This document shows positions 1,791-13,298 of a stretch of 64,000 bases of DNA, one piece after another; position 1 is the stretch's first letter; each line of letters begins with the position of its first letter. The notes below the pieces were generated by a model that made no database searches, was not told the DNA's origin, and saw nothing but the letters and a program-made list of their open reading frames with translations. The DNA is from Candidatus Gottesmanbacteria bacterium. GTDB lineage: Bacteria; Patescibacteriota; Microgenomatia; UBA10105; UBA927. A program made the translations under genes and the position numbers. Where the stretch lies: NCBI GenBank assembly GCA_030679255.1, contig JAUXTO010000025.1:8719-72718 (forward strand), given 5' to 3'.

Positions 1791-2588
1791 ATGAAAAAAG
1801 TATCTCTCTATCTATTCACCATTTCCATGATGTCTCTTCTATTTCCATCGCCGGTGGCGTTGGCTGCACTAGCCACTCCGTCAGCCGCGCCAAAGGTCAG
1901 TACAGCAAGCGCGACCACAAAAAAAATTGAAGACCTCAAGGATCGATTGGCGACCAAGGTTGCCGAGCTTCGACAGACTTCCCGCCGTGCAATCGTGGGC
2001 ACGGTCAAATCTACATCGATCACGAGCTTTGTTGTAGAAACAAAAACGAAAGACATTAAAATCGAGCTTATGGATGAAATCAAAGTAATACAATATCTTA
2101 AAGGCAAACGAACGATTCTTACTGGTGAAGATATAGCCAAAGGTGATCTCGTCGCGGTCTTTGGGGAACACGATGCCACGCTGGACCTACTCAAAGCCAC
2201 CATCGTCGTGATTCAATCCCGAAGTCCCGAGCGTATTTCGGGCACAGTCAGTGCACGCGACGACACGGAGTTTACGCTGACCATTACCACACCACAAGGA
2301 CAAACGATGATGATAGATATCGAAAAAGCAACGAAAACACTCGCCTGGAATCGGGAGAAGAAAGAAATTATCAAATCCGGATTTTCTAAAATCACCGTCG
2401 GGGCTACTGTCCACATCGTAGGATTCCCCGTTCCCAAAAAAGAAAATCGGATGAGCGCCGACCGGATTCTTGACCTTGGCAATCTTGCCTCCCCCGCGGA
2501 TCTTGCGATTCCGTCTACACCGACCCCTACGGAAAAACAAGCATCTCCTTCGGCCGCAGCCACCAAGAAACCTACTCCAACCCCGTAA
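1791..2588 (+). CDS. Hypothetical secreted protein (signal peptide, P/T-rich C-terminus)
   Basis: Start chosen at MKKVSLYLFTISMMSLLFPSPVALA (signal-peptide-like). The C-terminus is PSTPTPTEKQASPSAAATKKPTPTP. Confidence 0.5.
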   Translation: MKKVSLYLFTISMMSLLFPSPVALAALATPSAAPKVSTASATTKKIEDLKDRLATKVAELRQTSRRAIVGTVKSTSITSFVVETKTKDIKIELMDEIKVIQYLKGKRTILTGEDIAKGDLVAVFGEHDATLDLLKATIVVIQSRSPERISGTVSARDDTEFTLTITTPQGQTMMIDIEKATKTLAWNREKKEIIKSGFSKITVGATVHIVGFPVPKKENRMSADRILDLGNLASPADLAIPSTPTPTEKQASPSAAATKKPTPTP

Positions 2589-2697
2589 AGGCCTGGCCTT
2601 AGCCTTGTTTATCCTGAGCTTGTCGCAGGAGAAGGCCTGGCCTTGAGACTGTTACGATTTGACCGTTCTATTCTCGGTATGCTATCGTATTACCATA

Positions 2698-3054
2698 ATG
2701 AAACAATCGAGCGATACTTCCTACCCCACCCCCGCGATGAAAGAACTTTTCCACGCAATACTTCGGATCAAAACTCCCGATGAAGCATCAAACTTTTTCC
2801 GCGACCTTCTCACCATTGCCGAACTCAAAGAATTTACCAACCGCTGGCAGGTCGTGAAACTTCTGTATGAAGGCATGACGTATGAAGCAATTGCCAAACG
2901 CCTGATGATTTCTACGGCGACCGTCACCCGAGTCACCCACTGGCTCCACCATGGAATGGATGGGTACAAAGCCGTGGCAAACCGGGCGTTTCTAAAAGGA
3001 AAATTAAAAGTCGTTGATCGTCATCCTCGGGCCCGAGGATCCAGTTCAATTTAG
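2698..3054 (+). CDS. TrpR-like protein of the YerC/YecD family
   Basis: DLLTIAELKEFTNRWQVVKLLYEGMTYEAIAKRLMISTATVTRV matches the YerC/YecD TrpR-related family. Confidence 0.65.
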   Translation: MKQSSDTSYPTPAMKELFHAILRIKTPDEASNFFRDLLTIAELKEFTNRWQVVKLLYEGMTYEAIAKRLMISTATVTRVTHWLHHGMDGYKAVANRAFLKGKLKVVDRHPRARGSSSI

Positions 3055-3644
3055 AAATTTGACACCATCTGTTTTCTAATAGGTTCATACTTCGTTTTCA
3101 CCTCTCCATCAACAGTAATCTTTGAAAATTGAGCAGGCAGAGGTTTTGCTGTATGCATACTCGGTCCATCTTGAAGATGAAAATGAATATGCGGCTCACT
3201 CGTGTTGCCGGTATTTCCGCACAATCCCAACAGATTGCCTTGTATCACGTGATCCCCAACCTTTACCTGAATAGAGTTATATTTGAAATGACATAGCACG
3301 CTGAATTCGCCGTTTTGGTGATCGATGATGACGGTATTGCCCACGCCCACCGCCCGATCGCGCTCGCCGGGCAGGACATCTATCGCGCCATTTATTACCT
3401 GAATAATAACGCCGTCGCCCGGAGCAATGACCTCCTCACTGTACACGTCATATTCTTCAAGTTTTTCTCCAGCTCCCGTATGCCCTCTTCTGAAATCATA
3501 CGCATATATCTGGTTCTTCGGCCCATCCCCACTCGCAAATTTTACATGATTATTCGTCTCTCCCGTTCGCCCACCATTACTCACCATCCACGTCCCCAAA
3601 AATGGAAGTACAAGTTTCGTTTTTGTTTGATAATCCATACCCAT
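3051..3644 (-). CDS. M23 family metallopeptidase (LytM domain)
   Basis: GNTVIIDHQNGEFSVLCHFKYNSIQVKVGDHVIQGNLLGLCGNTGNTSEPHIHFHL is the peptidase M23 signature (HxxxD...HxH). Confidence 0.85.
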   Translation of the reverse strand: MGMDYQTKTKLVLPFLGTWMVSNGGRTGETNNHVKFASGDGPKNQIYAYDFRRGHTGAGEKLEEYDVYSEEVIAPGDGVIIQVINGAIDVLPGERDRAVGVGNTVIIDHQNGEFSVLCHFKYNSIQVKVGDHVIQGNLLGLCGNTGNTSEPHIHFHLQDGPSMHTAKPLPAQFSKITVDGEVKTKYEPIRKQMVSNF

Positions 3645-4014
3645 AGTATACTTGGTACCGGTACGTAAATTTTTTCCGCATCACTAATCGCGGCCAAATA
3701 TCTCTCTTGACATCATCATGGTAACATGTTAACATGCTATTATTCAATTAATTAATCATTCTACACTTCTCTGTAGGAGTGTAGAAATTTGTCTATGAAA
3801 CTTTTCAATCAATCAAATCAATTTTCTTACAACCAAGCCGCTTCCGACGCGGCTTCTTCCGCTCGCTCCCCCCGCCATCATACCTACTCCTAATCATCCC
3901 CCGCGCGTCGCGGAGTTCTGAAGTTTTTTTCCAATTTTCATTTATCATTCGTAGATTTACAGATTCGTAGATTCATCATTTCTTCATAACTCCCCCACTC
4001 GCAGGAACACTATT

Positions 4015-4086
4015 GGTGGCTGTAGCTCAAAAGTAGAGCATCCCGTTGTGGGCGGGAGTGAGCGGGAGCGTTACCCGTCAGTCACC
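4015..4086 (+). tRNA. tRNA-His-like element (anticodon GUG, with G-1), non-canonical D- and T-loops. Either a genuine tRNA-His or a tRNA mimic in the his-operon leader.
   Basis: Hand fold: G-1 then acceptor GGUGGCUG/CAGUCACC (one G-U pair), D-stem GCUC/GAGC, anticodon arm UCCCG-UUGUGGG-CGGGA with GUG at positions 34-36, T-stem GCGGG/CCCGU. The 5' half is near-identical to E. coli tRNA-His (GUGGCUAUAGCUCAG...). The D-loop lacks GG and the T-loop is AGCGUUA instead of TPsiC. It ends 14 nt before the hisG SD (taaggagg). Confidence 0.45.
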
Positions 4087-4100
4087 CTAAGGAGGAATTT

Positions 4101-4979
4101 ATGACAGCAATAAACAACAAAAATCTAAAATTAGCGATGCAAAAAGAGGGGCGGCTGACCGAAGAAACGCTTGAATTTTTGCGTAAATCCGGCCTGGAAT
4201 TTGAAAGCTACAACCAAAGGCTTTTCTCGACATGCAGAAATTTTCCATTAGAGATCCTCTACGTGCGAGATGATGACATACCAGACTATGTAGCCTCCGG
4301 AACGGTTGATCTGGGGATCCTCGGACAAAATATACTCTCTGAGGAGAGACCGAAGGTAAAAAAACTCCTCAATTTACGTTTTGGGTTTTGTACGCTTTTT
4401 ATTGCGGTCCCAAAGGAATCACAGATCAATAATCTCTCCGATCTCAATGGCAAAACCATCGCGACAACCTACCCTAACTCTACCCAAAATTTTCTTCTAA
4501 AGAATAAAGTTGAAGCAAAAATAGTAACAATAAGCGGATCTGTGGAAATCACCCCTGCCCTTGGCGTAGCCGATGCCATATCCGACCTTCTCTCTACCGG
4601 AAGCACCCTGGCTCTGAATGATTTGCGGCCACTGACTAAAGTCTACGACTCCGAAGCCATACTCATCGCAAATGAAGAAAGTGTCGCATCCAAAAATAAA
4701 ATGATGCTCCTTAATAATCTTCTGACGAGATTTAAAGGAGTACTCTCAGCAAAAAATTACAAATATATACTGATGAGCGCTCCCGAAGAAAAACTCACGA
4801 AAATTAAAAAAATGCTGCCATCTCTTATTTTCCCCACGCTCGCAACGATTTCAAAAAATGGTTTTACGACGCTTCAAACCGTTATAAAAGAAGATGTACT
4901 TTGGGACATAACAGGCAAACTCAAAGCCGCAGGTATATCGCAAATCTTCGTATTGCCGATAGAAAAAATTATTTCGTAA
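4101..4979 (+). CDS. hisG: ATP phosphoribosyltransferase, long form
   Basis: 292 aa with HisG motifs (LAMQKEGRL, DIPDYVASGTVDLGILGQN) and the C-terminal regulatory domain. A strong SD sits upstream. Confidence 0.9.
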   Translation: MTAINNKNLKLAMQKEGRLTEETLEFLRKSGLEFESYNQRLFSTCRNFPLEILYVRDDDIPDYVASGTVDLGILGQNILSEERPKVKKLLNLRFGFCTLFIAVPKESQINNLSDLNGKTIATTYPNSTQNFLLKNKVEAKIVTISGSVEITPALGVADAISDLLSTGSTLALNDLRPLTKVYDSEAILIANEESVASKNKMMLLNNLLTRFKGVLSAKNYKYILMSAPEEKLTKIKKMLPSLIFPTLATISKNGFTTLQTVIKEDVLWDITGKLKAAGISQIFVLPIEKIIS

Positions 4980-4982
4980 AAT

Positions 4983-6280
4983 ATATGAACATCTACTCAC
5001 TCAGCGCCATACCGAACACTGTATATGACCGTGTCATGAAGCGATCATATGGATCCAGAGCGGACATACTCCCTCGCGTTCAACAAATTTTTGAAGATGT
5101 AAGAAAATACAAAGACCGTGCACTTTTCCAAGAATATGAAAAGCGATTCGGCTTAACTCCTTCATTTTCTTTAAAAATATCACGCAAGGAAATAAAAAGT
5201 GCGTATAAGAGGGTTGACTCGTCTCTGGTTCAAGCGCTCCAACAGATGATAAAAAATATTACCAAAGTAACTACGGCTCAGATGAAGTCAAAAACTGAGA
5301 CTGCAGTATCTACGGAAAAAGGGGTCAGAGCATGGCGGGAATGGAGAGCAATAGAAAAGGTTGGCCTCTATATTCCCGGCGGAAAAGCTGTGTATCCATC
5401 TTCAGTGCTCATGAGTGGGATACCTGCGATGGTTGCCGGATGCAAAGAAGTCATTCTCTGCTCCCCTCCTTCGGATAAAGGAAAAATTCCAGCGATTATC
5501 CTCGTCGCGGCAGATATGATCGGTATTTCAAATATTTACTCCGTAGGCGGCGCTTACGCGATTGCGGCGCTGACGATTGGCACAGAAAGCATACCAAAAG
5601 TCGACAAAATTATTGGTGCGGGAAATGCGCTTGTCACGACCGCTAAAATACTAGCACTTGAAACCACAAGTATCGATATGCCGGCAGGACCGTCTGAGGT
5701 ATTCATCATCGCAGACGAATCCGCAAATCCTTCCTACATCGCTTCGGATCTTCTGGCAGACGGCGAACACGGAGATGACTCGGCGTGCGTCCTCGTCACA
5801 ACATCATCTGATGTCGCCAAGAGCACGATACTTGAAATAGAAAAACAATTAATACACTTGCCTACTGCATCTCGTGTTCGCGAATCGCTAAGAAAGTACG
5901 GACTCGTTGCCGTTGTCAATTCTCTAGAGCAAGCAATCATTTTTGCAAATGACTACGCACCGGAGCACTTGGAAATTATGACAAAAAATCCAGTCGCGGT
6001 ATCTAAAAAAATTAATAATGCTGGCTCTGTTTTTATCGGAAACTATACATCCAAATCGGCAGGAGACTATGCTACCGGTGCGAATCACATATTGCCGACC
6101 GGTGGCATGGCAAAATCATATCCTCCTCTAGGTGTAGACGCGTTTGGGAAATGGATGCAGATCCAAGAATGCACAAAACAGGGCTTAAAAAATATTCAAA
6201 AAACAATTGAAGCCATCGCGACAGTGGAACAATTGCCAGCACACAAAAATTCTACATCAATACGATTTCAAAGTATATGA
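4983..6280 (+). CDS. hisD: Histidinol dehydrogenase
   Basis: HisD family motifs (GGKAVYPSSVLMSGIPAMVAGC, NHILPTGG). Start chosen at MNIYSLS just after the hisG stop. Confidence 0.9.
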
Positions 6281-7839
6281 ATAATCTAGTATTACAAAGA
6301 ATACGAAATATGAAACCATACGCGCTTCCAATCTCTGAGAGGCGTGCGTATCGTGGAATGCTGTTAGACTTTAACGAGCGCACAGTATCGACTTCTCCTA
6401 TCATCAAAAAAGCTATATTAAACCTATTGAAATCAGACACATTGCAGCTATACCCAGAATACGGTGGACTTGAGGTAAAGTTAGCGAAATATGCAGGCGT
6501 CGATTCAGATCAGATATTAATTACAAACGGATCTGACCAAGGGATTGATCTTGTATTTCGTACATTTACAGAAACCGGAGACACTGTCATCATTCCAACT
6601 CCCAGTTTTGCAATGTTCTCTCAGTCTGCTTGTATATCAGGAAATAAAATTCTCCGTCCTATGTATGCTAAGAAGAATTTGTCGTTTCCTCTCGATGACG
6701 TACTGTCAATGATAAATGGATCCATAAAACTCATTGTCCTCTGTAACCCAAATAACCCTACCGGCACAGCAGTGTCAATTGATGGTATTGAGCAAATTGC
6801 GCAGAGGGCACCTAATGCAATAATTCTTGTCGACGAAGCATATTTTGAATTTTCAGCACTTACAGCTGTTACGCTCATTGAGAAATACCCAAACATTATC
6901 GTAATACGAACACTTTCAAAAGCCTTTGGCCTCTCGTCACTGCGTATCGGCTATATTGTTGCATCAAAAAATTACATTAATGAGTTTTCTAAAATTCGAG
7001 GACCGTTTGATGTAAATATGATCGCATACACAGCTTCACTGGCAGCACTTGAGGACCTAAAAGACATGCAAAGGTATGTGAATGAAGTAATGAAAAAATC
7101 CAAGCCGATGATTGAAAAATTTTTCTTTGAAAACGATATAAGATTTTATGCATCTGCTGCTAACTTTATTCTTTATAAACCAATTCAAGAACAGGAAGAA
7201 AAAATATTAAGAGACAACGGCATCTTAGTACGTGCACAAGATAAAACTAATATAGAAAATACCCTTCGTTTAACTATAGGAACTATTGAACAGATGAAAC
7301 AATTCATAAAAGTTTACCGAAATAAGATATTGAAAAAATCGAAATCAATAAAATACGCGTTTATAGATCGCGACGGAACATTAATTTTTGAGCCTCAAGA
7401 TACATTTCAGATTGACAGCATAGAGAAGTTAAAAATTTTAGACGGAGTAATCCCTTCACTCAATAAACTCAGTAAGAAAGGGTACGAACTTATTATGGTA
7501 TCAAATCAGGATGGCTTAGGAACGTCGGCTTTTCCACTTGCAAATTTTGAAGTGCCTCAAAACAAAATGCTAGAAATTTTTGAGAAAAATGGTATTACAT
7601 TTACCAAAATATATATCTGTCCACACATGCCATCGGAAAGCTGTATGTGCAGGAAACCAAAAATCGGACTTGTAAAAAAATTTCTAAAAGTGAACCAGAT
7701 AGACAAGAATAACTCCTTTGTCTGTGGAGATCGAGAGACTGACAGACGCTTTGCAAAAAATATCGGAATCAAATATGTCTCTATGAAAACGAATGGAAAT
7801 TTTCAAACAGCTCTATCACAAGGAGGTATAATTGTATGA
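6277..7839 (+). CDS. hisC: Histidinol-phosphate aminotransferase fused to a C-terminal HAD-type histidinol-phosphatase domain
   Basis: The first ~350 aa are class-II aminotransferase (NPNNPTG, SKAFGLSSLRIGY). The C-terminal ~165 aa is a HAD phosphatase (FIDRDGTL, GmhB/HisB-N-like). The start is ATGA-overlapped with the hisD stop. Confidence 0.8.
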   Translation: MNNLVLQRIRNMKPYALPISERRAYRGMLLDFNERTVSTSPIIKKAILNLLKSDTLQLYPEYGGLEVKLAKYAGVDSDQILITNGSDQGIDLVFRTFTETGDTVIIPTPSFAMFSQSACISGNKILRPMYAKKNLSFPLDDVLSMINGSIKLIVLCNPNNPTGTAVSIDGIEQIAQRAPNAIILVDEAYFEFSALTAVTLIEKYPNIIVIRTLSKAFGLSSLRIGYIVASKNYINEFSKIRGPFDVNMIAYTASLAALEDLKDMQRYVNEVMKKSKPMIEKFFFENDIRFYASAANFILYKPIQEQEEKILRDNGILVRAQDKTNIENTLRLTIGTIEQMKQFIKVYRNKILKKSKSIKYAFIDRDGTLIFEPQDTFQIDSIEKLKILDGVIPSLNKLSKKGYELIMVSNQDGLGTSAFPLANFEVPQNKMLEIFEKNGITFTKIYICPHMPSESCMCRKPKIGLVKKFLKVNQIDKNNSFVCGDRETDRRFAKNIGIKYVSMKTNGNFQTALSQGGIIV

Positions 7840-8426
7840 ACCGAAAAGCAATAATAAGCAGGAAAACAAACGAAACTGACATTTCAGTAGACCTGAACAT
7901 TGACGGAACAGGAAAAAGAACTATAGATATACCGATAGGATTTCTAACGCACATGTTGGATCTATTGTCCAAACACGGCATGTTTGATCTTTCCATAAAA
8001 GCTCGCGGAGATACAAATATAGACGAGCACCACACGGTCGAAGACATTGGCATTGTCTTGGGCGAGGCGTTCGCAAAAGCTCTTGGGGATAAAAAGGGCA
8101 TCAGTCGATATGGCTTTTTTATACTCCCGATGGATGAAGCAGTGGCGACGGTGGCTGTCGATTTTGCGGGACGATATGCGTTTACGCTCGACTGTCCATT
8201 TTCCCGAGAAAAGGTTGGTGATTTACCAACAGAGCTCGTCTATGATTTCTGGGATGCATTTGCCCAAAACGCAAAGGTAAATTTATTTATCAAAGTCGAA
8301 AACGGCCGGAACGATCACCACAAAATTGAAGGGGTATTTAAAGCAACTGCCCGGGCAATACGTATGGCGTGCGGATGGGACGAGCGGGCAATCAATCAAT
8401 TACCATCAACAAAAGGAACGTTATGA
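7836..8426 (+). CDS. hisB: Imidazoleglycerol-phosphate dehydratase
   Basis: IGPD motifs (IDEHHTVEDIGIVLGEA, GRNDHHKIEGVFKA). Confidence 0.9.
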   Translation: MNRKAIISRKTNETDISVDLNIDGTGKRTIDIPIGFLTHMLDLLSKHGMFDLSIKARGDTNIDEHHTVEDIGIVLGEAFAKALGDKKGISRYGFFILPMDEAVATVAVDFAGRYAFTLDCPFSREKVGDLPTELVYDFWDAFAQNAKVNLFIKVENGRNDHHKIEGVFKATARAIRMACGWDERAINQLPSTKGTL

Positions 8427-9037
8427 TAACCATCATTGATTATGGATTGGGAAATATCGGAAGCGTGGCAAACACGCTTACGCGACTTGGCCAAACGTAC
8501 CAAATAAGCGCTGACCCAGCAGAGATCAGATCTGCTGATGTGCTGTTATTGCCGGGTGTCGGCGCGGCGGGGGTTGGCATGAAAAATTTACGGGATCGAG
8601 GGCTCGACGTTGCTATTCGACGTGCAATACAAAACGGAAAACCATTTCTTGGAATTTGCCTCGGTATGCAATTGTTGTTTGACTATAGCGAAGAAGCCGA
8701 TACTCCATGTCTGGGAATACTCAAGGGATCGGTGAAAAAATTTCAGCGCGAACGGAAGGTGCCCCAAATCGGATGGAATCTAGTAATTCCGGTCAAGACA
8801 AATCCGAATGCTGTGCGATTGTTTGCCGGCATTCCGGAAAGAAACGCGTTTTATTTTGTAAACAGTTATTACCCAATTCCGGCTGATACGTCAGTCGTTG
8901 CGGCGACAACCGAATATGGCGAGCAGTTTGCAAGTGTCGTTGCGATAAAAAATATCGTTGCGACACAATTCCACCCGGAAAAAAGCGGCGAAACAGGACT
9001 CAGATTGTTACAAAATTTTATAAAGGAGTATGTATGA
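8423..9037 (+). CDS. hisH: Imidazole glycerol phosphate synthase, glutamine amidotransferase subunit
   Basis: [15 protein letters not shown]..., GICLGMQ and a catalytic H near the C-terminus. The start overlaps the hisB stop. Confidence 0.9.
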
Positions 9038-9798
9038 CAACCAAACGCATTATTCCATGTCTGGATATGACGCAAGGAAAAGTGGTGAAAGGGATTCAAT
9101 TCGTGGATTTCCGGGATGCCGGAGATCCGGTCGTGCTTGCCAAAAAATACAGTGAAACAGGAGCGGATGAATTAGTATTTTTGGATATCACGGCCACGGT
9201 TGAAAATCGGCCAATTCTTTTGGATGTTGTGGAGAGAACGGCAAAAAATGTAACTATCCCTTTTTCCGTAGGCGGCGGTATCAGAACTATCGAAGATATG
9301 CGTCAAATATTACTAGCCGGAGCGGATAAGGTATCGGTAAACACTGGAGCGGTAAATAACCCTGCGCTCATTACGAAATGTGCCAACGCATTTGGCAATC
9401 AGTGTGTAGTACTGTCTTTAGATGCAAAACAGATGGCACCAGGACAGTGGAATGCTTTTATTAACGGTGGCATGAAGGATTCTGGTAAATCAGCGATTGA
9501 TTGGGCAAAAGAAGCCACGCGGTTAGGTGCGGGCGAAATTCTTCTGACGAGTATCGATCAAGACGGTACAAAAAAAGGATTTAATATAGGTCTTACAAGA
9601 GAAGTTTCTCGGAACGTATCCGTACCGGTGATAGCTTCAGGAGGAGCCGGGAAAAAAGAGGATTTTTTAGATGTGTTTGTAAAGGGTGAAGCGGACGCTG
9701 CTCTTGCCGCATCATTGTTTCACTTTAGCGAATTGACAATCAAGGAGCTTAAACAATATCTCAAAGAACAAAATGTCATAATACGGGAGGCTTTATGA
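9034..9798 (+). CDS. hisF: Imidazole glycerol phosphate synthase, cyclase subunit
   Basis: [17 protein letters not shown] and ASGGAG match HisF. No hisA lies between hisH and hisF. Confidence 0.9.
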
Positions 9799-10115
9799 AG
9801 AATGTAACGATAGATTTTAGTAAAAGAAATGGATTGGTACCCGCTATTATTCAGGATTTTCAAAGCGGAGTTGTTTACATGCTCGGATATATGAATAAAG
9901 AAGCGTTCGAAAAAACAAAGGAAACCAGTTGGGTATATTTTTGGAGCAGAAGCAGAGAATGTTTATGGATGAAGGGAGAAGAATCAGGAAATAAACTAAG
10001 AGTAAAAGAGATTCTTATTGATTGTGATAACGATACAATTTTAGTAAAGATCAAATTGGATGGAAAAAACGCGTGTCACACAGGCAATATAACATGTTTT
10101 AATACGAAATTGTGA
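9795..10115 (+). CDS. hisI: Phosphoribosyl-AMP cyclohydrolase
   Basis: 106 aa with GLVPAIIQD and CHTG motifs. Confidence 0.85.
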
Positions 10116-10122
10116 GGAATAT

Positions 10123-10422
10123 ATGACATTAGAAGAACTATATAAAATTATCAAAGATCGTAAAAAGAACATGCCAGCAGGTTCTTATGTCGCTTCTCTT
10201 TTTCGGGGCGATGGAGATCGCATTGCTCAAAAGGTGGGAGAAGAAGCAATGGAAGTGCTGATTGCGGCGAAGAACGAGAGTAAATTACGCCAAGTCGAAG
10301 AGTTTACCGATCTTTTCTTTCACGCGCTGATTCTCATGGCACAACTCAATATATCGCTTATCGATATTTCTCGTGAGTTATCCAGACGAAATAAATCAAA
10401 AACAAAACGCGTGATACAATAG
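10123..10422 (+). CDS. hisE: Phosphoribosyl-ATP pyrophosphatase
   Basis: 99 aa, MazG-like (EEAMEVLIAAKNE...FFHALILM). Confidence 0.85.
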   Translation: MTLEELYKIIKDRKKNMPAGSYVASLFRGDGDRIAQKVGEEAMEVLIAAKNESKLRQVEEFTDLFFHALILMAQLNISLIDISRELSRRNKSKTKRVIQ

Positions 10423-12092: not shown

Positions 12093-13298
12093 ATGATCAC
12101 ACCACAAACACTCAAAGGATTTCGCGATTTCTTGCCGGCTGACGCGCTCAAGCGGCAATACGCCATCAACATCATTCGGCGTACATTCGAGTCTTTTGGA
12201 TTTGAGCCTCTGGAAACTCCCGCTCTTGAATACTTGGAAACATTTGCCGGCAATATCGGTGAGGATGAAAAATTATTTTTCAAATTTAAAGACCAGGGCG
12301 ACCGGGATGTGGCGCTTCGGTACGATCAAACGGTCCCGACCTGCCGTGTCATCGCCCAATATCCGGATAAAATATCCCTCCCTTTTAAACGCTATCAGAT
12401 CCAGACAGTTTGGCGGGCCGAAAAACCCCAGCGGGGACGCTTCCGTGAATTTTTGCAGTGCGACGCAGACATCTTCGGCGTTGACCACCGCGCGGCGGAC
12501 GGCGAAACGATTGCCCTCACGATCCAAATATTTAAAAATTTAGGGTTTAAAAATCCGACCGCCATCATCAATGACCGCGCGCTCTACCAAGGTGTCCCGT
12601 ATAAAGCAATTGTCGCGATAGATAAGCTTGCCAAAATCGGAGAAGACGGCGTTGTTGCCGAACTCATAAAAAAGGAATATACGGAAAAAGACGCAAGAAC
12701 ACTTTTAGATACCGTCAAAAACAGCAAACCCAACGACGCTCTCAAAACGATATTCGCGTTTCTTGATGCGTATGGCATGAAAGAACAGTATCGCTTTGAG
12801 CCCACGCTTGCCCGGTCGTTTAATTACTCGACCGGCACCATCTGGGAAATTGTCGATCCCGCCTTCACCGCCGGTTCCATGGCCGGATGCGAACGCTTTG
12901 ACAGTCTCGTCGGAAAATTCAGTAACCGAAACGTACCCGCTGTCGGGTTTGCCGTTGGATTTGACCGGACGATGGTCGCCATGGAAGAACTCGGGTTATT
13001 CCCCGCCGTCACGACGACCACCGCCGTCCTCGTTACAATTTTTTCGGAAAACTCGCTTGCCGCATCACAATCCATGACACAAACACTCCGCGGGGCCGGG
13101 ATTAACACGGATCTCTATCCGGATCCGAACACGAAACTCGAAAAACAACTCAAGTACGCCGATCGAAAAGGCATCCCGTATGTTGTAATTCAAGGGCCGG
13201 AGGAAGTCTCACGGGGCGTTGTAAAATTAAAAGACATGAAAGCCAAGACGCAAGTAGAAATGACGGTTGAAAAAATTATTCAAAAACTTAAATCTTAA
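12093..13298 (+). CDS. hisS: Histidyl-tRNA synthetase
   Basis: Class II motifs (GFRDFLP, RYDQTVP, RGRFREFLQCDADIFG) plus a C-terminal anticodon-binding domain. The anticodon-binding domain means it is not HisZ. Confidence 0.85.
   Translation: MITPQTLKGFRDFLPADALKRQYAINIIRRTFESFGFEPLETPALEYLETFAGNIGEDEKLFFKFKDQGDRDVALRYDQTVPTCRVIAQYPDKISLPFKRYQIQTVWRAEKPQRGRFREFLQCDADIFGVDHRAADGETIALTIQIFKNLGFKNPTAIINDRALYQGVPYKAIVAIDKLAKIGEDGVVAELIKKEYTEKDARTLLDTVKNSKPNDALKTIFAFLDAYGMKEQYRFEPTLARSFNYSTGTIWEIVDPAFTAGSMAGCERFDSLVGKFSNRNVPAVGFAVGFDRTMVAMEELGLFPAVTTTTAVLVTIFSENSLAASQSMTQTLRGAGINTDLYPDPNTKLEKQLKYADRKGIPYVVIQGPEEVSRGVVKLKDMKAKTQVEMTVEKIIQKLKS

Follow-up and report, generated by a model that had tools for sequence, protein, structure and literature searches.

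A conserved tRNA-His-like element in the leader of the histidine biosynthesis operon of Candidatus Gottesmanbacteria and its relatives

The DNA considered here is a stretch of 64,000 nucleotides, hereafter the window, from Candidatus Gottesmanbacteria, which belongs to the Microgenomates of the Candidate Phyla Radiation (CPR). It encodes a histidine biosynthesis (his) operon, and between the upstream leader and the first gene of that operon, hisG, lies an element of 72 nt with the appearance of a tRNA-His. Sequence comparison strongly supports that this is a genuine and conserved tRNA-His-derived element that is tied to the his operon. The element and its parts, followed by the neighboring genes and signals on which the argument depends, are these:

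4015–4086, plus strand: tRNA-His-like element, a 72-nt cloverleaf, recognized from its sequence, ARAGORN, Rfam, its fold, its homologs and covariation
4015, plus strand: G-1 of the element, paired with C73 at 4086
4016–4022/4079–4085, plus strand: acceptor stem
4025–4039, plus strand: D arm, with the loop AAAAGUA, which has no GG
4041–4057, plus strand: anticodon arm, with the 7-nt loop UUGUGGG and the anticodon GUG at 4048–4050
4058–4061, plus strand: variable region GUGA, 4 nt
4062–4078, plus strand: T arm, with the loop AGCGUUA, which has no T-Psi-C
From 4087, plus strand: 3′ trailer CUA, beginning with C74, which is invariant in the family
4091–4095, plus strand: Shine-Dalgarno sequence GGAGG of hisG, 3–4 nt past the end of the element
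4101–4103, plus strand: ATG start codon of hisG, 14 nt after C73 of the element
4101–10422, plus strand: his operon (hisG, hisD, hisC fused to a HAD phosphatase, hisB (IGPD), hisH, one His_biosynth gene, hisI and hisE), from Pfam and the list of open reading frames
12093–13298, plus strand: hisS, encoding histidyl-tRNA synthetase (HisRS), from Pfam and matches to HisRS structures in the PDB, about 1.7 kb past hisE

Several lines of evidence identify the element as tRNA-like. A reading of the window made from its letters alone (the sequence-only reading) had proposed a tRNA fold with a histidine anticodon and a G-1:C73 pair at these positions, and both a tRNA predictor and the tRNA covariance model agree: ARAGORN calls a tRNA-His(GTG) at 4016–4087, and with the Rfam tRNA model, whose gathering score is 29, the element reaches 41.9 bits, with an E-value of 1.3e-7 in a search of 500 nt and of 1.7e-5 in one of the full 64 kb. 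The minimum free energy fold is the cloverleaf itself, at −32.1 kcal/mol (z=−3.5), and none of 200 shuffled sequences was as stable. L166, a Logan assembly made independently from the same organism, matches the leader and element at 100% identity over 421 nt, and the element is therefore no assembly artefact. A default scan of the 64-kb window at the Rfam gathering threshold missed the element, although it stands 12.9 bits above the tRNA gathering score, because the speed filters drop so atypical a tRNA. The same reading had put hisS about 2 kb downstream of the operon, close to its actual place, and had put the end of the element 14 nt before the ribosome-binding site of hisG; these 14 nt in fact reach to the ATG.

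In the detail of its sequence the element has the stems of 7/4/5/5 bp of a tRNA, scoring above the tRNA model threshold, the extra G-1:C73 pair and GUG anticodon of a tRNA-His, and the 7-nt anticodon loop, U33 and purine at 37 of a decoding tRNA. It departs from tRNAs at the universal nucleotides of the elbow and core (G18 G19, T54 Psi55 C56, A58 and the R15:Y48 Levitt pair), of which it keeps only G19 and C56. In sequence and structure the element thus agrees with tRNA-His everywhere but at the elbow and core, and for this reason we do not class it as an ordinary tRNA-His. Nor do we class it as an operator.

The HisG protein of the window shows 100% identity to that of a Candidatus Gottesmanbacteria MAG. 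We gathered hisG loci from species-representative genomes, JGI metagenomes and exact-protein look-ups, built a covariance model (R1) from the first examples of the element, and scanned these loci with it. The element is present in 39 of 117 CPR hisG loci, always upstream of hisG and on the same strand, which answers in the affirmative the earlier question of whether the arrangement is conserved in relatives; R1 found it in none of about 45 hisG loci of Chloroflexota or Bacteroidota. On a neighbor-joining tree of hisG, which is too weak for counting gains and losses, its presence and absence are patchy among close relatives. In a model-based alignment of 37 elements (30 of them distinct), 98.8% of the 660 pair cells hold standard pairs, a figure that fitting to the model favors. 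Two-sided, compensatory changes occur in 15 of the 22 pairs, and they are numerous across all four helices. None of 500 shuffles equaled the observed pairing, and sliding the 3′ partners by 1–3 columns left 41–55% paired.

These results bear on the explanation that the element is a functionless, decaying duplicate of tRNA-His that stands upstream of hisG by chance. Its credible points are a deletion in one copy (L092), insertions and loop changes in relatives, and the patchy losses. Against it stand the retained pairing with its many compensatory changes, and the unusual loops, which are kept across hisG lineages that are only 66–74% identical and whose tertiary pairs covary. Covariation in all four stems, together with conservation of the unusual loops, makes a neutral, decaying pseudo-tRNA unlikely; neutrality is also unlikely because, within the class to which the window belongs, the element is more conserved (identity 0.73–0.88) than hisG DNA (0.66–0.72). 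We disfavor this explanation and regard it as very improbable. Thus, of the three readings that had been left open (an unusual functional tRNA-His, a pseudo-tRNA, or a mimic acting in cis), the premise common to them, a conserved tRNA-His-derived element tied to the his operon, stands, and the decaying pseudo-tRNA does not fare well. Covariation and conservation mark the element as a genuine component of the operon that is under selection, and not as a chance fold.

The elbow deserves separate consideration. The sequence-only reading correctly reported that the GG of the D-loop and the T-Psi-C of the T-loop are lacking, but its conclusion that the elbow contacts are missing was overstated, as the Rfam alignment places G at position 19 and C at position 56 of the window element, preserving G19:C56, and the changes at 15:48, 18:55 and 54:58 are coordinated. 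The window element belongs to a degenerate class of 13 members (the window, L001, L011, L081, L083, L084, L086, L088, L089, L095, L099, L104 and L107), which share the D-loop ARAAGYA and the T-loop AGCRUUA and occur after both of the attenuator types described below; on the hisG tree they are scattered, and L082, a canonical copy, nests among them. G19 and C56 are kept throughout the class, A:U replaces T:A at 54:58, and positions 55 and 18 are occupied by G and A, respectively; positions 18 and 19 of the short D-loops are numbered by our own assignment. At 15:48 the class has A:A in six distinct sequences, including the window, G:G in two and G:A in one, and elements with a canonical T-loop have G:C, A:U or A:C. 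Other members show Watson-Crick-like combinations at 18:55, namely G:C in L102, L154 and L127, C:G in L015 and A:U in L017. This pattern suggests selection for the L-shape with a free choice of the exact nucleotides, and we conclude from the alignment that the elbow is rewired and not lost. The window element would then fold into a full L-shaped tRNA, with G19:C56 joined by A54:U58, A18/G55 and a purine–purine combination at 15:48.

Such departures are uncommon in other tRNAs from these genomes. A canonical elbow, with GG and UUCGA, is found in the tRNA-Leu of the same organism, which scores 56.9 bits with the Rfam model, four tRNAs of L009 score 58–67 bits, and 10 of 11 control CPR tRNAs are canonical, the exception being a tRNA-Gln in L081 with C55. 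At least one near-universal tRNA feature is broken in 22 of 32 distinct elements versus 1 of 11 controls (Fisher p=0.001). About a third of the element family nevertheless consists of fully canonical tRNAs, such as the copy in L009 at 63.6 bits.

The features that specify histidine are conserved. G-1 is present in all 37 aligned elements; position 73 is C, or in L011 and L107 a U that still pairs with G-1; and the anticodon is GUG in every aligned element other than those of L095 and L083, despite widely diverged anticodon stems. From this conservation of GUG and of G-1:C73 we conclude that something histidine-specific is under selection.

The position of the element within the leader is central to its interpretation. 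The part of the leader upstream of the element in the window contains two features that may point to attenuation:

3795–3893, plus strand: leader peptide open reading frame MKLFNQSNQFSYNQAASDAASSARSPRHHTYS and stop codon, 32 codons, ending ...SPRHHTYS, with two His codons at 3876–3881
3856–3930, plus strand: putative attenuator terminator, an imperfect long hairpin (CUUC...GAAG, inner CCGCG/CGCGG) followed by U7 at 3924–3930; the fold is weak (z=−1.7)

The C-terminal ...SSARSPRHH of the leader peptide is kept in L083, and L086 has a similar ...SPTPHHH. The hairpin at 3856–3930 was not called in a terminator scan of the window, and none was evident by eye in L083, L086 or L039; by analogy with the clear terminators of relatives, it is a possible attenuator terminator. 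An AT-rich spacer of 85 nt separates its U7 from the element. A T-box (RF00230) in the leader of the window was considered and rejected, the Rfam search giving no match within 3700–4200 at E<=10 or in the whole window at E<=0.01, and the window having the HH leader peptide instead; apart from the tRNA element, Rfam gave no further match anywhere in the 64 kb.

Among the CPR hisG loci, 39 have a T-box leader and 63 have an HH or HHH leader peptide, the latter an approximate class that was assigned by regular expression. The element follows 20 of the 39 T-box leaders and 16 of the 63 leader-peptide leaders, and by these counts the his leaders of these CPR bacteria are modular. The T-box of the Microgenomates his leaders (L001, 5663–5849, and 35 listed loci) is itself unusual in that its stem I is cut to a short hairpin with a covarying stem and its terminator is unusually long and encloses an extra hairpin. 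The L001 example scores 48 bits (E=1e-9), below the Rfam gathering score of 93. The motif UGGGACCGCG was found with the T-box in 35 loci, and the specifier loop is GUCACGA, with the His codon CAC, in 31 of the 35 leaders (two matched another site, and the L099 leader is cut short); the bulge is always UGGG, which fits a C73 discriminator. A covariation between the specifier and the anticodon of the element was sought and rejected, GUCACGA being found in 31 of 35 leaders including that of L095, whose element has AUG.

In the relatives the element begins 0–25 nt past the U-run of the attenuator. This leaves no room for a promoter of its own, and therefore the element would be transcribed only when the attenuator is read through. 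On its other side in the window, neither a promoter nor a terminator was called in the 14 nt before hisG, so that element and gene are contiguous, on one strand and with no such signal between them, as expected of a tRNA–mRNA co-transcript.

The flanks of the element resemble those of tRNA genes. A U stands directly 5′ of G-1, just before the expected RNase P site, in every element that was printed. On the 3′ side, C74 is present in 30 of 30 distinct elements, with the trailers CAA (13), CCA (7), CUA (4), CAC (3), CAU (2) and CAG (1). Ordinary tRNA genes in the same loci have C74 in 8–9 of 10 cases and CAA as the commonest trailer, including the tRNA-Leu(CAA) of the organism of the window. The tRNA genes of these CPR genomes (L166, 4877–4962, minus strand; controls in L009, L015, L027, L081, L094 and L097) mostly have no encoded CCA, and have C74 and CAA or CAC trailers, which may constitute a lineage-specific signature of 3′ processing. 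The match of the trailers suggests that the element meets the end-processing machinery of real tRNAs. The junctions with hisG point the same way. The distance from C73 to the ATG is 2–25 nt in most loci; in L091 the hisG ATG overlaps A76 of an encoded CCA and has no Shine-Dalgarno sequence, and in L090 the ATG lies 4 nt past C73, also with no Shine-Dalgarno sequence. Cleavage of the transcript at the 3′ end of the tRNA would most easily account for these two junctions, an argument that is only moderate because the organism of L091 seems to use few Shine-Dalgarno sequences generally.

The hypothesis that we favor, tentatively and with a little less than even confidence, is that the element is a co-transcribed tRNA-His paralog in the his leader that is excised in the manner of a tRNA and is probably not the main decoder of histidine codons. 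The paralog would be built into the leader and transcribed only on read-through of the upstream attenuator, which would sense histidine by the leader peptide with its two His codons in the window and by a T-box with a CAC specifier in many relatives. Ordinary tRNA enzymes would excise it: RNase P would cleave between the invariant U and G-1, and 3′ processing would take place at C73/C74. The cut would detach the attenuator RNA and leave hisG with a minimal leader that begins just before the Shine-Dalgarno sequence. The released RNA would carry the HisRS identity set (G-1:C73 and GUG), its level would be expected to rise in histidine starvation, and in the lineage of the window it would probably not be the main decoder.

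The last of these points turns on the relatives. The nearest to the window are L083 and L086, which share with it the M23 peptidase neighbor or the leader architecture, and a similar leader-peptide tail. Their acceptor and T arms are identical to those of the window element, and their lower halves are altered: L083 has a 9-nt anticodon loop, UUUUGUGAA, which ARAGORN calls as Thr-UGU, and L086 carries about 35 extra nt between positions 9 and 10. In L095 the anticodon is AUG while its own T-box specifier is still CAC, L099 has G8 and a D stem of 3 bp, and L092 is a copy of the L009 type with a clean 49-nt deletion that removes the T arm, the 3′ acceptor strand and the Shine-Dalgarno sequence. 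Position 33 varies among G, C and U in one clade, and G33 or C33 is present in L022, L076, L131, L142 and L143. Judged by these sequences, genomes with such variants must decode His codons by another gene, and therefore, by parsimony, the genome of the window probably has another tRNA-His too. We consider that in the lineage of the window the element is probably no longer the housekeeping decoder.

The opposing explanation is that the element is a decoding tRNA-His, possibly the sole one, with an odd elbow, and that histidine synthesis and, in relatives, HisRS are regulated together with its supply. We regard this as a serious possibility but an unlikely one. The window copy has all the hallmarks of tRNA-His and a normal anticodon loop, the canonical third of the family would be expected under this explanation, the trailers are those of real tRNA genes, and the tertiary covariation suggests an intact L-shape. 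Also in its favor is the clustering of tRNA-His, hisS and his genes, as in the six loci with the order T-box, element, hisG, hisS, hisD, and in L027, where a tRNA-His follows hisS. Opposed to these are the variants of L083, L086, L095, L099 and L092 and of position 33, which would cripple decoding, and the canonical elbow of the tRNA-Leu of the same organism. Moreover, an essential tRNA would hang on the read-through of an attenuator that senses that very tRNA, and the presence of the element is patchy among close relatives on the hisG tree. The L027 gene (2441–2515, minus strand), the one stand-alone tRNA-His seen, lies right after hisS (2559–3938, minus strand) and is unusual in its turn: it has a canonical elbow, A73 and U at −1 with no encoded G-1, and it resembles the alphaproteobacterial or eukaryote-like identity type.

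Several points weigh against the hypothesis of an excised, non-decoding paralog. The sequences show that the element exists, where it lies, that it is conserved and covaries, and that it has histidine identity elements, tRNA-type flanks and an atypical elbow, along with variants in relatives that look unfit for decoding. That it is co-transcribed, cut by RNase P and 3′ enzymes, recognized by HisRS and not a decoder, and what the released RNA does, we infer. Processing alone leaves the conservation of GUG and of G-1:C73 unexplained, which is the main gap of the account. The window copy, with its normal 7-nt anticodon loop, U33, G37 and normal arm lengths, could decode as far as its own sequence is concerned. 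No second tRNA-His was found in about 70 kb of the organism (the window and L166) or in any element-bearing locus, as the sole-decoder explanation would have it; if the complete genome likewise held none, the element would have to be the decoder. The C55 of the tRNA-Gln in L081 may mean that some relaxation of the elbow is general in CPR bacteria. Finally, in six loci the element lies 57–180 nt from hisG, and trimming of the leader is thus not the sole possible role.

A different proposal is that the element is a tRNA-His mimic that does not decode and is dedicated to linking the his operon with HisRS and the charging of tRNA-His, either as a whole-tRNA operator in cis, beside the ribosome-binding site of hisG, or as a starvation-induced decoy in trans that would amplify sensing by the T-box or leader peptide. 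Considered as a whole we regard this as a serious possibility but an unlikely one. It would amount to a third, tRNA-shaped layer of regulation that can be combined with either attenuator, with the elbow changed in a coordinated way at 15:48, 18:55 and 54:58.

In the cis form of this proposal the element would remain uncut on the hisG mRNA, HisRS or another binder of tRNA-His would block the Shine-Dalgarno sequence, and uncharged tRNA-His would compete for the binder and relieve the block. The HisRS identity set and the L-shape are kept while the ribosome-related positions 33, 54, 55 and 18 are relaxed, and in most loci the Shine-Dalgarno sequence or the ATG lies 2–25 nt from C73. The invariant C74 might moreover hinder RNase Z, in light of the literature on CCA anti-determinants. 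In addition, hisS lies in or just past the same operon, and the T-box and the element share an operon with hisG, hisS and hisD in the six loci named above. However, the loci with the element 57–180 nt from hisG do not suit an operator, and in L090 and L091, where no Shine-Dalgarno sequence exists and the ATG abuts the element, excision fits better than occlusion. None of the stand-alone hisS genes in the loci scanned has an element upstream, and the trailers match those of ordinary, processed tRNA genes. A helix formed by the flanks of the element, which could sequester the Shine-Dalgarno sequence, was rejected: duplex energies of the 5′ and 3′ flanks in 26 loci were no better than those of shuffled controls (window z=−0.6), with L104 alone clearly negative (z=−2.5). 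The sequence-only reading had raised the analogy with the operator of E. coli thrS; nothing that we found specifically supports such a role as a HisRS operator, and we consider the cis form rather improbable.

In the trans form the RNA would be excised and non-decoding, and it would sharpen the response to starvation either as an additional uncharged ligand of CAC T-boxes or by competing for HisRS or sequestering it. The T-boxes of relatives have a CAC specifier and a UGGG bulge, to which GUG and C73 correspond, the RNA would be made only on read-through and would thus provide positive feedback, the sequence pattern fits a non-decoder, and tRNA-Other offers a precedent (PMC3399842). The his leaders of the window, L083 and L086, however, have no T-box, Rfam finding none in the whole window, and the AUG anticodon of L095 mismatches its own CAC specifier. 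We consider this form improbable, more so than the cis form.

Returning to the excised paralog that we favor, its arrangement may be compared with known systems. In tRNA punctuation and co-transcripts, as in the E. coli thrU-tyrU-glyT-thrT-tufB operon and in mitochondrial transcripts, tRNAs and coding regions share one transcript. The element is similar in that one predicted transcript contains a tRNA-shaped unit and, immediately after it, a coding region. RNase P and 3′ processing would set the 5′ end of the mRNA, and the start codons of L090 and L091 directly adjoin the end of the tRNA, much as in mitochondria. It differs in being always cognate to the pathway (His), in lying past an amino-acid-sensing attenuator, in often breaking the rules for decoders, and in being optional among close relatives. 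The E. coli thrS operator consists of mimics of the tRNA-Thr anticodon arm that are bound by ThrRS, and it controls the synthetase gene itself. Common to both cases are a cognate-tRNA-like structure directly upstream of the Shine-Dalgarno sequence and an operon linked to the cognate synthetase. Unlike the thrS operator, which has anticodon arms only, the element forms the whole cloverleaf, bears identity elements in its acceptor and is flanked in the manner of tRNAs, it precedes the first gene of a biosynthetic operon, and binding by a synthetase is putative.

The non-proteinogenic tRNA-Gly species of staphylococci, which serve cell-wall synthesis and to which PMC3399842 refers, keep their synthetase identity and have altered T-loop and D-loop signatures. 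The combination of altered loops and kept synthetase identity is shared by the element and is the pattern expected under relaxed ribosomal constraint; the staphylococcal genes, however, stand alone and have a known non-ribosomal acceptor pathway. We know of no non-ribosomal acceptor pathway for His-tRNA. The 3′ ends of tobamovirus RNAs are histidine-accepting tRNA-like structures that are pseudoknotted and not cloverleaves. They too are mimics of tRNA-His inside a larger RNA, recognized by HisRS in the virus, but they are terminal, whereas the element is a true cloverleaf that lies internally in a bacterial 5′ leader. T-box (RF00230) and his leader-peptide attenuators occupy the same regulatory region and respond to the same signal, the charging of tRNA-His, but the element lies past the terminator and occurs with attenuators of either type. 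The tRNA-Other of B. cereus is a pseudo-tRNA with a Trp anticodon that affects expression from the trpS1 T-box and is reportedly inactive in translation (PMC3399842). It resembles the element in being a tRNA-like RNA that has lost some conserved features and whose anticodon is relevant to a cognate sensing system, and it differs in being a stand-alone gene beside a genomic island (PMC3399842), whereas the element is embedded in the leader of the regulated operon itself, with a role that is putative.

A literature search, of incomplete coverage, returned no account in which a cognate tRNA, or a module resembling one, stands between a His attenuator and hisG. If the hypothesis of an excised paralog is correct, a cognate tRNA or tRNA-derived RNA would be governed by an attenuator that senses its own charging, and this arrangement would recur across a large uncultivated bacterial group in combination with T-box or leader-peptide control. 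The family would also form a natural series of tRNA-His sequences, from canonical through elbow-rewired to clearly non-decoding, that separates the features of a tRNA that are needed for processing and synthetase recognition from those that are needed by the ribosome, and that includes apparent covariation of the tertiary pairs (15:48, 18:55 and 54:58). The element bears on the origin of tRNA mimics from real tRNA genes. There is a consequence for annotation as well, since standard tools call such loci tRNA-His, and the loci may be miscounted as the housekeeping gene in CPR genomes.

Further upstream in the window lie features that may add to the control of the operon:

2659–3054, plus strand: gene for a TrpR-family regulator (Pfam Trp_repressor, E=1e-22)
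3707–3736, plus strand: promoter-like site of the his operon, with −35 TTGACA at 3707–3712 and −10 TAACAT at 3730–3735, sigma-70-like, with 10/12 matches in a promoter scan

A TrpR-family gene adjoins the his operon in L081 and L166 too. In the window a perfect 12-nt palindrome, CATGTTAACATG, at 3725–3736 overlaps the promoter. The TrpR-family protein is possibly a candidate histidine repressor with the palindrome as its operator, which would add a further layer of control. TAACATG repeats occur at the his promoters of L012, L015, L022, L024–L032, L039, L076, L083 and L086.

Just past the predicted transcription start of the window, at 3759–3786, is a 12-bp hairpin that is absent from L083, L086 and L039. 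The spacer before the element contains the direct repeat ATTCGTAGATT (3947–3957 and 3963–3973), and the near-identical ATTCGTAGGATT is found in L039. A long-range pairing of the C-rich leader at 3856–3880 with the 3′ half of the element, seen in a fold of 351 nt, was considered and rejected: the partner segment, as judged by eye, is present in L083 and absent in L086, and it is therefore taken to reflect shared ancestry and composition, not a conserved helix.

The his and hisS genes of the window have peculiarities of their own. The operon contains only one gene of the HisA/HisF family (His_biosynth, 9034–9798), where two are normally needed, and hisC is fused to a HAD-type phosphatase domain (6277–7839); both features recur in L081 and L166. 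Motif 2 of the window HisRS is WRAEKPQRGRFREFLQ, and its nearest matches are 6nhi and eukaryote-type HisRS; as an indicator of G-1 recognition this motif was set aside, as no reliable test could be derived from it.

In some relatives two other conserved hairpins occur in the same place, after the terminator of the attenuator and before either hisG or the element (L005, about 540–676; L016 and L129, about 5865–6000; L076, about 5657–5776). In the second of these the loop, AUGUAA(A)C, is conserved and the stem covaries; this hairpin constitutes an uncharacterized structured leader module. Lastly, the elements of L082 (97–168) and L084 (104–176), both in closely related operons of the order hisG-hisS-hisD, have near-identical acceptor, D-stem and anticodon arms but differ in the T arm and D-loop, which are canonical in the former and degenerate in the latter. 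This difference suggests that the T arm and D-loop may have been swapped between two tRNA-His-like copies, possibly by gene conversion.

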